From: Patescibacteria group bacterium
GTDB taxonomy: Bacteria; Patescibacteriota; Minisyncoccia; UBA6257; 2-01-FULL-56-20
Direction: 5' to 3'
Assembly: GCA_028865305.1 (NCBI GenBank)
Contig: JAGWKM010000001.1
Location: 34,168-98,167, forward strand
Length of the DNA: 64,000 nucleotides
Every line of letters starts with the position of its first letter. Positions within the stretch are counted from its first letter, which is position 1. Made by a program: the position numbers and the translations under genes. The notes beneath the pieces were generated by a model that did no database searches, was not told the DNA's origin, and saw only the letters and a program-made list of their open reading frames with translations. Below are positions 24,110 through 61,442 of the stretch, one piece after another.

Positions 24110-24189
24110 CGGAGAATGGAGTACGGAGTATGGAGAATGAATGTCCCATTCTCCATTCTCCATTCTCCATTCTCCATTCTCCATTCTCC
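24110..24189. repeat. inverted heptamer pair (GGAGAAT)n / (CCATTCT)n
   Basis: fills the pyrG-holA spacer; six CCATTCT units end two bases before the holA ATG. Confidence 0.95.
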
Positions 24190-24972
24190 ATGATCATCTT
24201 CCTCTATGGTTCCGACGACTATCGCCGGATCCAAAAGAAACGCGAATTGATTGCCGAGTTCGAGAAGAAGCATTCCGGTTTGGGTATCGGCAATTTTGAT
24301 TTTGCGGCCAAGGAGGGGATTGATGCCTTCGAGGGGTTCATGCGCAACCAGTCCATTTTTGAAACCGCGAAGCTTGCAGCCATAGACAATGCTTTTGAAG
24401 CCGATGCGAAACAGCTTGCAAAATTGCTTCAGCCGTTTCTGAACGATAAAGCGGCCAGCATTTTACTCGCGGAGCGGGAAAAACCGGTGAAGGCGCTCGG
24501 ATTCCTCATCGAGAAGCCGGCATTTTTCCAAAAATTTGAGAATTTGGAAGGCGCCGCGTGGGAACAGTTCATCAATGCGGAAGCAAAAGATTCGGGCTTG
24601 CATCTCGCTTCCGATGCCGTCCGTTTTCTCGCTGCCGTTTACCAAGGCAATTCCTGGGCGCTTGCGACTGAACTCCGAAAATTGAGCGCGTGGGGCATGG
24701 GGCGGCCTATCAGTAAAAAGGATTTGGACATGCTGGATCTCGAAGCGGCGCCAAACTATTGGATGCTGTTGAATGGCATGAAAGCGCCCGATGTCCGGAC
24801 GCGTTTGTACGCATTTGAAAAATTGATGGCGTTGAACGATCCGCCGGCGAAATTATTCAACATTCTGGCTTCGCAATGGAATGCAAAACTTGCGCAGTTC
24901 GCCGAGTATGATTTTGCGGTTAAATCCGGGAAACTGGAATACGACGATGCATTGCTGGATGCCATTTTGTAA
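24190..24972 (+). CDS. holA: DNA polymerase III subunit delta
   Basis: MIIFLYGSDDYR, ELRKL, VKSG; lies next to rpsT as in many bacteria. Confidence 0.85.
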   Translation: MIIFLYGSDDYRRIQKKRELIAEFEKKHSGLGIGNFDFAAKEGIDAFEGFMRNQSIFETAKLAAIDNAFEADAKQLAKLLQPFLNDKAASILLAEREKPVKALGFLIEKPAFFQKFENLEGAAWEQFINAEAKDSGLHLASDAVRFLAAVYQGNSWALATELRKLSAWGMGRPISKKDLDMLDLEAAPNYWMLLNGMKAPDVRTRLYAFEKLMALNDPPAKLFNILASQWNAKLAQFAEYDFAVKSGKLEYDDALLDAIL

Positions 24973-25097
24973 ATGTTAAAATCTGGTTAAAATTTTCGAG
25001 GCGCATAACTTGCGGCCGTGAATGGGTTGCGCGCGCGGATCAAAAAGAACAAAACCGGCTGTAAGCCGGTCTTTTCCTCTTTTCCTGTTTTTTTATT

Positions 25098-25355
25098 TTA
25101 TCTTGCCAGTTTTAACGCGAGGCGGGATTTGAGGCGGGCGGCTTTATTTTTGGCGATGACATTCGTTTTTGCCGCTTTGTCGAGCGCCTTAAAGATCGCC
25201 GGAAGTTTGGCCTTGGCATCGTCTGTCTTTTTCCCCGCGATCATTTTGCGGTACGAAACGATGAGCTTCTTATAAGCTTCTTTTTTCAGGATATTGCGCG
25301 ACCGGCGGGTGCGGTTTTGTCGGAGCGCTTTTTTAGCGGAAGAAGTGATAGGCAT
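25098..25355 (-). CDS. rpsT: 30S ribosomal protein S20
   Basis: MPITSSAKKALRQN, LDKAAK...KNKAARLKSRL. Confidence 0.97.
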   Translation of the reverse strand: MPITSSAKKALRQNRTRRSRNILKKEAYKKLIVSYRKMIAGKKTDDAKAKLPAIFKALDKAAKTNVIAKNKAARLKSRLALKLAR

Positions 25356-25496
25356 GGAATGAAACAAGGAGTAAGGAACCAAGAACAAGGAACCTGCTCC
25401 GAATACGAAGTAAGAATACAGGAAAGCTGGAAGAATGGCAAGTGAGTTGACGGAAGACTGGTAATTATGTAATTTTTTCGGCAGGAGTTTGACCTT

Positions 25497-25874
25497 ATGC
25501 ATATTCAGTTTCGGGTGGACAAATCTTTCTTTTTTATTTCACCCCGAATCCCCAAAGCCGATATTTTGGCTTTTGTGAACAGTCTGTTAGGTTCACTGCG
25601 GCATAGGTTAGCTGAAGGATTCGATGTTGGGTACGACGTTAATTTTGGCGGTGTCGATAATTTCGGCGTTGATATATTGCTTTCCGTTGACGACAACCAG
25701 AATTTGTCCAACGAGGAAGTCGCCGCAATAATCACCGGATTCGAGAGAAACATTTCGCCACGTTTGGAAGTTGGTAAGCGATACCGTATCAAAATCCAGC
25801 GCGAGGGGAAGGTTTTTACCGGTATGGCGGGTACTCAAATCGGTCTGCCGGCCGGTCTCCGGCGCGATGCCTGA
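25497..25874 (+). CDS. hypothetical protein
   Basis: 125-aa ORF in otherwise empty region. Confidence 0.5.
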   Translation: MHIQFRVDKSFFFISPRIPKADILAFVNSLLGSLRHRLAEGFDVGYDVNFGGVDNFGVDILLSVDDNQNLSNEEVAAIITGFERNISPRLEVGKRYRIKIQREGKVFTGMAGTQIGLPAGLRRDA

Positions 25875-25919
25875 TTTCTTTGTATTCATTTTTAAGTTGC
25901 CGAAAGGCGGCTCTTTTTT

Positions 25920-26138
25920 GTCCGCGCTCAAATCGGGCGATGGCGCAACGGCGGGATGCGCCTTTCGAGACAACCTCGGAGGCAGGTTGGCTTGGTCCGC
26001 GCGTTATCCGCGCGAAGCGCGACGCGCGGCAACCTGCCGAGAGCTTACGCGCGGCACCGCTGGAGTGCCGCGACGCCGTGTCTTGAAAGGCGCATCCCGC
26101 CGTTGCGCCATTCATTTATGTATGATTTGAGCGCGGAG
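25920..26138. repeat. long branched hairpin element
   Basis: ATGGCGCAACGGCGGGATGCGCCTTTC / GAAAGGCGCATCCCGCCGTTGCGCCAT arms; core related to 34795-34945. Confidence 0.85.
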
Positions 26139-26197
26139 CGTGGGGAGCGTGGTTCCCGGCCTTCGCTGAGATGACAGAACGGGCGTATAATACAGGT

Positions 26198-59304: not shown

Positions 59305-60234
59305 ATGTATGACTTAATCATTATCGGCGGTGGGCCGGGCGGTGTGGCTGCTGGGATATATGCCGCGCGGAAGAAAATGAAAACGTTGCTCATCACCGAC
59401 ACCTTCGGCGGACAGTCGGTGGTTTCAGCCGACGTGCAGAATTGGATTGGCACGAAGTCGATCTCTGGTTTCGATCTGGCAAAATCGTTAGAGGAGCACC
59501 TGCGCGCCCAACAGGGAATTGAAATCGATGAAAACGATTTGGTAACCGAAATCCAAAAAAAGATTATATCCGACGATCGTCAAATACCATCCTTTTTGAT
59601 AAAAACAAAAAAAGGAAAGGAGTTCGAGACAAAGCATGTCCTGCTTGCCTCCGGCAGCCGGCACAAAAAACTTGACGTGCCCGGTGAAAAAGAACTGGAC
59701 GGCAAGGGCGTGGTTTATTGCTCCATTTGCGATGCGCCGCTTTTTGAAGGGAAGACCGTGGCGGTTGTCGGCGGCGGGAACTCGGCGCTCGAAGCCGTTT
59801 TGGATGCGATTCCTTATGCTTCAAAAATTTATGTGTTGGTCCGTTCGGCGCTGAAGGGCGATCCGGTGACGCAGGACAAGGTGAAGGCGCATCCGAACGT
59901 GGAAATAATCCTGGGAGCGACGCCCGAAGAAATCATCGGGAAAGATACGGTTACTGGGATCCGTTATCTTGCGAACGGCGAGTCGAAAACATTGAATGTG
60001 GATGGCGTATTCGTGGAGATCGGCCAGGCGCCGAATTCGGATTTTGTGAAAGATTTGGTCAAACTGGATGATTACGGCCACGTTGCGGTCGACCATAAAA
60101 CCCAGCAAACTTCCTGTCCGGGCATTTGGGCGGCCGGCGACATAACCGACCAGCCGTATCGGCAGAACAATATTTCGGTGGGCGATGCCGTGAAGGCAAC
60201 GCTCAATATTTACGATCGGGTGAAGATGCAATAA
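59305..60234 (+). CDS. trxB: thioredoxin reductase
   Basis: GGGPGG, CSICD, GGGNSA, WAAGD. Confidence 0.92.
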   Translation: MYDLIIIGGGPGGVAAGIYAARKKMKTLLITDTFGGQSVVSADVQNWIGTKSISGFDLAKSLEEHLRAQQGIEIDENDLVTEIQKKIISDDRQIPSFLIKTKKGKEFETKHVLLASGSRHKKLDVPGEKELDGKGVVYCSICDAPLFEGKTVAVVGGGNSALEAVLDAIPYASKIYVLVRSALKGDPVTQDKVKAHPNVEIILGATPEEIIGKDTVTGIRYLANGESKTLNVDGVFVEIGQAPNSDFVKDLVKLDDYGHVAVDHKTQQTSCPGIWAAGDITDQPYRQNNISVGDAVKATLNIYDRVKMQ

Positions 60235-60267
60235 AAAGAGCGCGGCATTGAAGCGGCGCCCATGGTA

Positions 60268-60891
60268 TCACAAAGAGCTTGAAGGAGCGGTTAATCCCGG
60301 ATATCCATGGTCCAACTCGTATTGGAGGTTTTGGATAACCTCGAGAATTATTTTGCGTGTTTCGAGCGGGATTGGCGTCTTCTGATTTTGGAGTATCCGT
60401 TCCAGCCGTCGCAGGATGATCCCTTTTCCACCGGGAGATATCACTGCCCCGTCGATGATTTTAAGGTAAGCTTGGATTTGGCCTCCCAGGTAAACGAACT
60501 TATGCCGGCACTTTGGTTCAAACTTCTCCATGGTCGACTCCAGCAGCCGCATGGTCAATTCCAAAGGCAGCTTCTTATCGCCATTAACCATTGGGTGATC
60601 TAATTCGGCGCGGAGGTTCTGGGCAACATTTTGGATGGTCTCTGCAACTTGGTACGGCAAATTATCCGATCTCGCCTCAAGGATTTCGAGCTTTTTGAGC
60701 GCAAGCTGCTTGTGTGCGGGAGCGGCAATCGATTCCCCGATGATGCGCAAGTAACCGTGCATGGCTCCGGTCAGGTAGGGGAGCTTGTTTCCGATCGCCA
60801 GTTTGCGGTCTTCGGCTGCGAGCTCCAGCAATTGCAGCGCTAGCTCCACCGGCATCTTTTTTTTAAATTGGTTCACCGTGAGTCCCTCCAC
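60268..60891 (-). CDS. hypothetical protein with tandem duplicated helical domain
   Basis: KKMPVEL...YL.G....YLRII...QNL..ELDH repeated twice. Confidence 0.7.
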   Translation of the reverse strand: MEGLTVNQFKKKMPVELALQLLELAAEDRKLAIGNKLPYLTGAMHGYLRIIGESIAAPAHKQLALKKLEILEARSDNLPYQVAETIQNVAQNLRAELDHPMVNGDKKLPLELTMRLLESTMEKFEPKCRHKFVYLGGQIQAYLKIIDGAVISPGGKGIILRRLERILQNQKTPIPLETRKIILEVIQNLQYELDHGYPGLTAPSSSL

Positions 60892-60961
60892 GGGATAATT
60901 TAAATTGTTTTTGAATGACTGTCAATATTGACGCACGGGGATTCATGAATAAAATGGTGAA

Positions 60962-60988
60962 TTGGCACTCAAAGGTCGGAAGTGCTAA
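60962..60988 (+). promoter_or_regulatory. CIRCE (HrcA operator) downstream of sigma70 promoter
   Basis: TTGGCACTC-N9-AAGTGCTAA; TTGACG..TAAAAT at 60928-60955. Confidence 0.9.
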
Positions 60989-61071
60989 TAACGGTGACAT
61001 GGCTCATGCGACATGGATAAAGGGTTACCCCTGTCCCATTGGCCATGAGACCTGCCACAAAAAAAATAAAT

Positions 61072-61362
61072 ATGAACTTAAAACCAATATCAAACCATTT
61101 GATCCTCCAGCCGCTTGAGGAAGAGAAGACGACGAAGAGCGGCATCGTGCTGCCGGAGACGGCGGAGAAAGAAAAGCCCATCAAGGGCAAGGTGCTTGCG
61201 GTTGGGCCGGGAAAAACCATGGAGAACGGTTTGGTGAAACCCATGTCGGTCAAGGTCGGCGACATGGTCCTTTTTAAGAAATACGGGCCGGACGAGATCG
61301 AAATCGAAGGAGAGAAATATCTCGTCGGCGATGAGGAGGATATTTTGGCGGTAATTGAATAA
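61072..61362 (+). CDS. groS: co-chaperonin GroES
   Basis: TKSGIVLP.TAEKEKP, AVGPG, VKVGD. Confidence 0.97.
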   Translation: MNLKPISNHLILQPLEEEKTTKSGIVLPETAEKEKPIKGKVLAVGPGKTMENGLVKPMSVKVGDMVLFKKYGPDEIEIEGEKYLVGDEEDILAVIE

Positions 61363-61442
61363 TAAGAAGAATGTAGAAGGCGGAACGTATAATGGGTGGA
61401 ATCCCTTTCTACGTTCTGTGTTCTATTTTCTATTTCTTCAAT

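Follow-up and report, generated by a model that had tools for sequence, protein, structure and literature searches.

Spacers between genes of a Patescibacteria group bacterium contain hairpins built from two inverted arrays of a 7-base unit, and the same architecture surrounds genes of the PF05635 family (S23p, 23S rRNA intervening-sequence protein) across phyla. We analysed 64,000 nucleotides of this genome (GenBank assembly GCA_028865305.1, contig JAGWKM010000001.1, positions 34,168 to 98,167 of the forward strand), hereafter the window, together with the complete assembly (G000) and related genomes. Elements of this architecture are present in operon spacers, in 16S rRNA and in protein loops. 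Their units belong to genome-specific families that are common to empty copies and to copies carrying a PF05635 gene, and copies are gained and lost between close relatives. We give an even chance to the reading that the spacers hold palindromic heptamer elements of the type of the rRNA intervening sequences (IVSs), with or without a cargo gene. Judged from their sequence, the elements are probably substrates of RNase III.

Heptamer hairpins in the spacers of the window

The original prediction, made from the letters of this DNA, held that eight spacers contain an array followed by its reverse complement. This was borne out at all eight sites, which have units of about seven bases (Table 1). 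The sense-strand RNA of each spacer was folded and compared with 200 dinucleotide shuffles. Seven of the eight spacers folded more stably than their shuffles (z −3.1 to −11.9); the spacer at 41265-41340 is weak, its fold being equalled by 24 of 200 shuffles. Intrinsic terminators do not describe these hairpins, since the stems abut start codons and are not followed by a T run (e.g. at 24189 and 57991). With Rfam at gathering thresholds only two tRNAs were found in the window and no match at the hairpins. Pfam backs the names pyrG, ruvA, murE, holin, secG, SBP, dsbA, SPW, grx and groES used for the flanking genes; the holA-like open reading frame (ORF) had no Pfam match. The ATTA loop at 57955 was considered as a leftover of an ATTAAA motif of a cargo, for which it has too few bases to decide.

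Period-7 arrays and their units across the genome

The assembly comprises 1.99 Mb in 388 contigs. Of 79 Tandem Repeats Finder rows in the window, 37 have period 7, and heptamers are over-represented relative to neighbouring periods in the assembly as a whole. Counting exact arrays with 2.5 copies or more yielded 161 of period 7, compared with 19, 4 and 10 of periods 6, 8 and 9; a second count that tolerates mismatches gave 211 arrays of period 7, nine of period 8 and eight of period 9. Period-7 arrays are also paired: an array in the opposite orientation lies at most 600 nt away from 107 of 348 period-7 arrays, as against 4 of 451 period-6 arrays. After merging, 67 loci consist of an array and its reverse complement, 60 intergenic and seven inside called genes.

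Random arm orientation, the outcome at odds with the original prediction, was not seen genome-wide: 35 loci begin with the purine-rich arm and nine with the pyrimidine-rich one, and among short-loop hairpins the ratio is 21 to 1. One apparent pyrimidine-first pair, at C184:2328, proved to be two separate arrays flanking rpsM. The arms that flank PF05635 genes of other phyla have the same purine-first order. The tip of the short hairpins is typically GGG-(3 to 6 nt)-CCC.

Each locus had been thought to use a unit of its own. There are indeed 83 distinct canonical units, but GGAGAAT alone accounts for 47 of the 211 arrays, and many others, such as GTAGAAT and GTATAAT, are one change away, so that the units form families. 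One subfamily comprises the short-loop GGAGAAT/GTAGAAT/GTATAAT hairpins. Another is a dispersed element with TAATTAA arms, present in about 25 copies, with a conserved inner hairpin CGAATG..CATTCG. The third has TTTTCAA/TTGAAAA arms around a loop of 100-130 nt that contains an AT-rich promoter-like motif and a 32-nt palindrome (26777 and 58171 in the window). The motif ATTAAAnnnTnATTAAAnAA, followed by TTGAC-like bases, occurs at 36 sites in G000 before many genes, those at 26826, 38757, 58210 and 47585 of the window among them; it looks like a promoter upstream element of this genome.

Position relative to genes

Called neighbours were available for 57 intergenic loci and are co-oriented at 48, divergent at eight and convergent at one of them; the 1456 adjacent gene pairs of the background divide into 1162, 146 and 148, respectively. 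A gene 5′ end adjoins 56 of the 57 sites. The claim that the arrays end at the next start codon agrees with the 17 short-loop hairpins between co-oriented genes, whose median distance is 2 nt from the preceding stop codon and 5 nt from the first in-frame start that follows. Hairpin-free spacers are so short that any insertion into them will look as if it filled the spacer and stopped at the start codon. The genome had been described as poor in Shine-Dalgarno sequences, and a Shine-Dalgarno-like 4-mer was found in 17% of 635 genes.

PF05635 genes between heptamer arms

The original prediction also saw the hairpins as empty sites of a gene-cassette system and expected small genes, such as those for four-helix-bundle or GxxExxY proteins, between such arrays. 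For PF05635, a four-helix-bundle family, this holds. G000 has eight PF05635 matches, five of which lie between inverted heptamer arms (C47:19879, C243:43767, C328:25134, C47:31246 and, inside 16S rRNA, C236:20135); one more has a left arm only. These copies combine a long terminal inverted-repeat stem with an S23p/PF05635 ORF, the matches having E values of 2e-34 and 2e-22. To score flanking inverted repeats, cut-offs of 12 and 15 were used, with mismatched flanks as controls. In G000 and 30 relatives, 27 of 36 PF05635 loci have a flanking inverted repeat of at least 12 and 19 one of at least 15 (controls 8/100 and 0/100).

This is not a peculiarity of one phylum. A scan of one genome per species, with an alignment of seven sequences as query (an alignment of 22 was too diverse), gave 80 PF05635 loci from lineages of the candidate phyla radiation, Bacteroidota, Acidobacteriota, Proteobacteria, Planctomycetota and others. 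Both flanks were available for 74 of them; the repeat reaches at least 12 in 56 and at least 15 in 47 (controls 8/200 and 2/200). The arms of these 56 loci have period 7 in 48 cases and period 8 in eight. When PF05635 flanks were pooled, self-match was highest at periods 7 (0.367) and 14 (0.352), other periods giving about 0.28.

GxxExxY genes behave differently. None was found in G000, and in the phylum 19 of 28 loci have flanking inverted repeats (controls 11/150) without heptamer arrays. A first hint of a period-9 signal around these genes did not hold on pooled flanks.

Cargo and empty copies are connected in several ways. Of the 211 arrays in G000, 73 have the exact unit of one of its own PF05635 arms; in the relatives only 2 of 80 arrays have such a unit. 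In 25 of 33 loci the cargo gene is co-oriented with the genes on either side, and at no locus does it run against both of them, which fits a life style at the RNA level. Across 20 relatives, array density follows PF05635 copy number (rho 0.58), although related genomes are non-independent samples; period-7 arrays are present in 13 of these 20. The comparison of orthologous junctions for cargo, called for at the outset, was successful at groES-groEL: in one relative (G005) the heptamer arms in this spacer enclose a broken PF05635 gene, at the place where the window has an empty hairpin. The idea of empty cassette sites is thereby supported as far as PF05635 genes between inverted arrays and a junction filled in one genome and empty in another are concerned; 'cassette system' here describes the layout and not a mechanism.

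In C47:18925-20265 (L031 547-1887, minus strand), L043 and L047, the PF05635 ORF continues across a heptamer arm free of stop codons and into the gene that follows. In the C47 case the arm codes for the hydrophobic core of a signal peptide, and the next gene is pilin-like in two relatives. A genome of the same genus (G001, contig C13) is about five times as dense in arrays as G000, with 28 in 50 kb, and has AGGGTAT/ATACCCT as dominant unit.

Arrays in 16S rRNA and inside coding sequences

The 16S rRNA gene on contig C236 contains two insertions. Its 5′ end (model positions 1 to about 70) occupies C236:20000-20067 and is followed by the left arm, the PF05635 ORF, the right arm and the resumption of 16S, so that the first insertion sits between model positions of about 70 and about 100. 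The second, of 910 nt at model position 781 or thereabouts, holds a heptamer hairpin and a TAATTTC-type element. In the assembly the gene breaks off before its 3′ end, and a 23S rRNA was not found there. The 16S copy is the one in G000 that interrupts a variable rRNA helix as the classical IVSs do; the eight sites of the window lie outside rRNA.

Called genes contain 91 of the 211 arrays. These cluster at four copies (52 of 91), as would be expected from selection that keeps the reading frame; intergenic arrays reach 15 copies. In the window, the genes for the isoleucyl- and arginyl-tRNA synthetases (IleRS, 48694-52305; ArgRS, 52665-54563; both on the minus strand) together have seven in-frame arrays coding for peptides such as GEWRMEN. 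Aligned with five relatives, the array segments of IleRS prove to be two insertions (10 and 11 residues) and two replaced loops. Residues 512-680 of IleRS form an inserted histidine-phosphatase domain (His_Phos_1), which is also present in all five aligned relatives. Alignment of ArgRS to a solved structure places its 9- and 11-residue insertions in loops. The hairpin inside the ArgRS gene is very stable (ΔG −51.9, z −8.6) and has six sense-strand wobbles, at this single locus.

Turnover at orthologous junctions and evolution of the arms

Three junctions were followed through related genomes, and all three show turnover. Between pyrG and holA there is a plain spacer of 19 nt in G010, unrelated sequence in G017 and plain spacers of 3-14 nt in two metagenome relatives, while a third metagenome lineage has a very long AAATGAC/TTTGTCA hairpin. 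No heptamer array was found between ruvA and murE in G001, G010 or G017, the first of which belongs to the same genus. The groES-groEL spacer has heptamer hairpins in about 9 of 29 relatives, with a different unit in each, and a length of 2-35 nt in fifteen. Units and lengths thus differ between genera and metagenome relatives.

The arms had been said to co-evolve, as both match at each locus. They do have the unit in common, but their variants are mostly unmirrored: only 18 of 139 variant positions recur in the opposite arm, and when one arm is slid by 7 bases complementarity is still 78%, compared with 82% in register. Each arm is homogenised on its own. Over the 67 loci the arm pairs comprise 1540 Watson-Crick pairs, 30 sense wobbles, 32 antisense wobbles and 96 other mismatches. 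The excess of G:U pairs on the sense strand that selection for RNA pairing would produce was therefore not found in these loci, which argues that pairing is kept mainly at the DNA level and leaves no trace of sense-strand RNA pairing.

Further features of the window

The groES gene is preceded at 60962-60992 by an inverted repeat, TTGGCACTC-N9-AAGTGCTAA, which we take, by eye, to be a CIRCE-like operator. Directly before murE, a short GC hairpin at 26965-26996 carries GGAGG in its loop and reaches up to the ATG. On many contigs of G001 and G017 there are 88-91% matches to stretches of this hairpin about 33 nt long, and it may be a dispersed ribosome-binding-site module. Coordinates of the heptamer features are given in Table 1.

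Table 1 Heptamer elements in the window, with sense-strand folds of the spacers
Feature	Position	Strand	Description	Folded segment	Energy (kcal/mol)	z
pyrG-holA hairpin	24110..24189	+	4 GGAGAAT-like units, loop of 7-9 nt, 6 perfect ATTCTCC units abutting the holA ATG	24107-24195	−41.8	−7.1
ruvA-murE long element	26777..26962	+	TTTTCAA-type / TTGAAAA-type outer arms; loop with AT-rich promoter-like motif and 32-nt perfect palindrome	26774-26996	−66.2	−7.0
holin-secG spacer	41265..41340	+	degenerate left arm, TCCATTC-type right arm; weak hairpin	41265-41349	−22.1	−1.4
secG-SBP hairpin	41558..41662	+	pyrimidine-first TTTTCAA/TTTCGAT arm, then TTGAAAA-type arm	41554-41670	−33.1	−3.1
dsbA-SPW hairpin	57924..57991	+	4 GTAGAAT-type units, apex GGG-ATTA-CCC, 4 ATTCTAC-type units; ATG 5 nt further on	57916-57998	−36.2	−11.9
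SPW-grx long element	58171..58324	+	AGTTTTC x3 / AAATTGA-type arms around promoter-like motif and palindrome as at 26777	58161-58333	−39.5	−5.9
pre-groES degenerate hairpin	60998..61058	+	GACATGG-type / CCATGAG-type arms, between CIRCE-like operator and groES start	60990-61074	−25.7	−3.15
groES-groEL hairpin	61363..61442	+	GAAGAAT/GTAGAAG-type and TTCTAC/TTCTAT-type arms	61360-61445	−32.2	−6.7
TAATTAA/TTATTAA-armed element	6623..6761	.	copy of the family of about 25			
One-armed kin of the long elements	38757..38876	+	before PolX gene; promoter-like motif, palindrome, TTGAAAA-type array			
IleRS in-frame arrays (4)	49197-49231, 49376-49411, 49585-49614, 49989-50017	-	GEWRMEN-like peptides			
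ArgRS internal hairpin	52927..53008	-	about 32 bp; GTGGGAA/ATGGGAG, then TTCTCAC units; codes for 11-residue loop insertion			
ArgRS in-frame arrays (3)	54093..54338	-	GGAGAAT, TCGGCCA, TCCATTC as read on the + strand			

Discussion

If the spacers hold elements of the IVS type, the following picture would emerge. A single 7-base unit is repeated in both arms of the stem, in opposite orientation, and the purine-rich arm precedes the other; the apex, GGG-(3 to 6 nt)-CCC, is either empty or occupied by an AT-rich promoter-like motif and a PF05635 gene oriented as the host transcript. Slippage at the DNA level would lengthen or shorten the arrays seven bases at a time, and copies would persist where they do little harm, that is in short spacers before start codons, variable rRNA helices and surface loops of proteins. 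In the host transcript the arms may pair into a duplex of 20-35 bp that would be cut by the RNase III of G000 (encoded at C309:13138-13797), as in rRNA IVSs. Such a cleavage would release the RNA of the cargo and divide the operon transcript, and the downstream gene would keep a short, pyrimidine-rich leader. SbcD was looked for in G000 and not found, which fits the tolerance of palindromes.

It is tempting to go one step further and to assign the PF05635 protein a trans-acting role in a selfish element of a new kind, in which it would recognise the heptamer hairpins or help to build them. We take the PF05635 four-helix bundle to be a relative of Avd, the accessory protein of diversity-generating retroelements. 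A factor of this kind would jointly explain period 7 across phyla, the genome-specific unit families and the presence of one element in rRNA, in spacers and in frame within genes; still, we regard this extension as doubtful.

Several observations weigh against elements of the IVS type. Two of the eight PF05635 matches in G000 (on C253 and C18) are either broken or not clearly flanked by heptamer arms, and the flanking repeat is below threshold in 9 of 36 and 18 of 74 PF05635 loci. G017 has four arrays in 50 kb and no PF05635 gene. Cutting of the ArgRS duplex by RNase III would be harmful, so that cleavage would have to be selective or the copy costly to its host. All gene-context counts are based on gene calls from a crude in-house ORF scoring. 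The bin itself may be a composite of more than one organism: its 1.99 Mb compare with 0.5-1.3 Mb in its 30 relatives, contamination is estimated at 8%, and the arrays are unevenly spread, with 187 on contigs of at least 10 kb (1.18 Mb) and 24 on shorter ones (0.81 Mb). Apart from these points, the purine-first polarity, which is identical when read on either strand, is accounted for by none of the explanations considered here.

Selection for translational coupling was the use first proposed for these hairpins. The stem would bring the stop codon next to the following start, and terminating ribosomes would melt its base and re-initiate, which would replace the Shine-Dalgarno sequence. The placement a few bases behind the stop and before the start, the preference for co-oriented genes with a single convergent site where 148 of 1456 pairs overall are convergent, and the scarcity of Shine-Dalgarno-like sequences are all in line with it, as are the TAACTGA arrays of Beggiatoaceae, most of which end 1 nt before starts that have no Shine-Dalgarno sequence, as described in PMC4679880. 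However, at orthologous junctions, also those of genomes from the same genus, there is either a plain spacer of 3-45 nt or sequence that is unrelated, so the genes work without the hairpin; sense and antisense wobbles are equally rare; and the same arrays occur in rRNA, in coding sequence and between divergent genes (8 of 57). This weakens the proposal, and coupling, which the evidence does not require, appears quite unlikely to us as the reason for the hairpins. The absence of the arrays from orthologous promoters likewise argues against protein-binding arrays, by which a PF05635 pentamer or a general RNA- or DNA-binding protein would control how the next gene is transcribed or translated, the hairpin being secondary. 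It is true that many units end in AAT, that GTATAAT and GTAGAAT contain −10-like hexamers, that each genome has a dominant unit (GGAGAAT in G000, AGGGTAT in G001) and that nearly all sites adjoin a gene 5′ end. But 83 units in one genome are hard to reconcile with a binding site, and for the copies within genes and rRNA there is no gene that they could regulate, which makes this explanation very unlikely.

If the arrays were plain microsatellites, heptamers would be born by polymerase slippage, palindromes would be formed by template switching, and PF05635 genes would merely land or survive in them. Heptamers are over-represented in many bacteria, and Xanthomonas has 70-75 convergent pairs per genome (PMC4692102). 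The separate homogenisation of the arms, the failure to find SbcD and the arrays of G017 without a PF05635 gene point in the same direction. Against this, period 7 is tied to PF05635 flanks and not to GxxExxY flanks, despite the inverted repeats there; array density tracks PF05635 number, with the reservation made above for related genomes; unit families are genome-specific and common to cargo arms; and both arm order and cargo direction are strongly non-random. We consider microsatellites alone an unlikely explanation. Exchange at the DNA level, as at integron attC sites or by hairpin-targeting transposons, would make the arms recombination sites and move the cargo as DNA. It would account for a cargo placed exactly at the apex, between GGG and CCC, and for one junction being empty or filled in different genomes. 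Yet no integrase or transposase was recognised by Pfam among 50 proteins, a search confined to the window, within which the site-specific recombinase and conserved sites of an integron cassette were thus not seen, and no nuclease is linked to the sites there. Arm sequences vary by locus, unlike transposon ends, and no pair of genomes has identical arms with and without cargo. DNA cassettes are therefore extremely improbable in our view.

Elements of the IVS type, if this is what the spacers hold, join two questions: where rRNA IVSs come from and what S23p does, and why heptamers are in excess. The origin of rRNA IVSs and the function of the S23p/PF05635 ORF have been unclear since the first description, as stated in the discussion of PMC4990558, and there is no agreed explanation for the abundance of heptamer repeats in bacteria (PMC4692102). 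Already in print are the heptamer excess, the inverted pairs in Xanthomonas and the start-abutting arrays of Beggiatoaceae (PMC4692102, PMC4679880) as well as rRNA IVSs with S23p. In the literature within our reach, which excludes subscription journals and supplements, we found neither a general rule that PF05635 genes lie in heptamer-array hairpins nor the spread of a mostly empty element with genome-specific units into operon spacers and essential coding sequences. Should the link be causal, it would offer a testable function for a very large family of orphan genes and would point to an origin of fast changes in the leaders, rRNA and protein loops of small genomes.

Comparison with known systems

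The closest counterpart is the IVS of Coxiella, which is excised by RNase III and has a terminal inverted-repeat stem of 28 bp, an S23p ORF in the loop and tandem heptamers whose copy number varies among strains (PMC4990558). Like the rRNA IVSs in the 23S of Coxiella, Leptospira and Salmonella, the elements described here have an inverted-repeat stem and, where cargo is present, a PF05635/S23p ORF in the loop that is oriented as the host RNA. Unlike them, most copies lie outside rRNA, most have no ORF, and the whole stem, a putative RNase III substrate, is made of heptamer arrays.

Other bacteria have kindred heptamer repeats, among them the short tandemly repeated repetitive (STRR) sequences of cyanobacteria. 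The introduction of PMC4692102 mentions STRR heptamers as well. The GGGAATC repeats of Xanthomonas resemble ours in being intergenic heptamers in convergent pairs, mostly between co-oriented genes and varying among close species; they differ in that there is one G-rich unit per genome, which is read as quadruplex-forming and lies nearer to the upstream gene (PMC4692102). The TAACTGA arrays of Beggiatoaceae, cyanobacteria and Bacteroidetes also end a few bases from starts without a Shine-Dalgarno sequence and in a few cases lie inside ORFs, but they repeat one unit in direct orientation, only one of 170 sets being inverted, and are not hairpins (PMC4679880). The terms S23 and 'intervening sequence' do not appear in the text of PMC4692102 or PMC4679880, nor does 'four helix' in the latter.

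The GGAGAAT-type hairpins, with their 83 units and variable lengths, are not copies of one consensus sequence; the TAATTAA-armed subfamily is. Rickettsia palindromic elements (RPEs) and repeats of the type of miniature inverted-repeat transposable elements (MITEs) or repetitive extragenic palindromes (REPs) are dispersed palindromes, with in-frame insertion into essential genes, and consist of copies of one consensus of 100-150 bp. Unlike in these repeats, only the 7-base unit and the architecture are common to the elements described here, and their copy number is variable.

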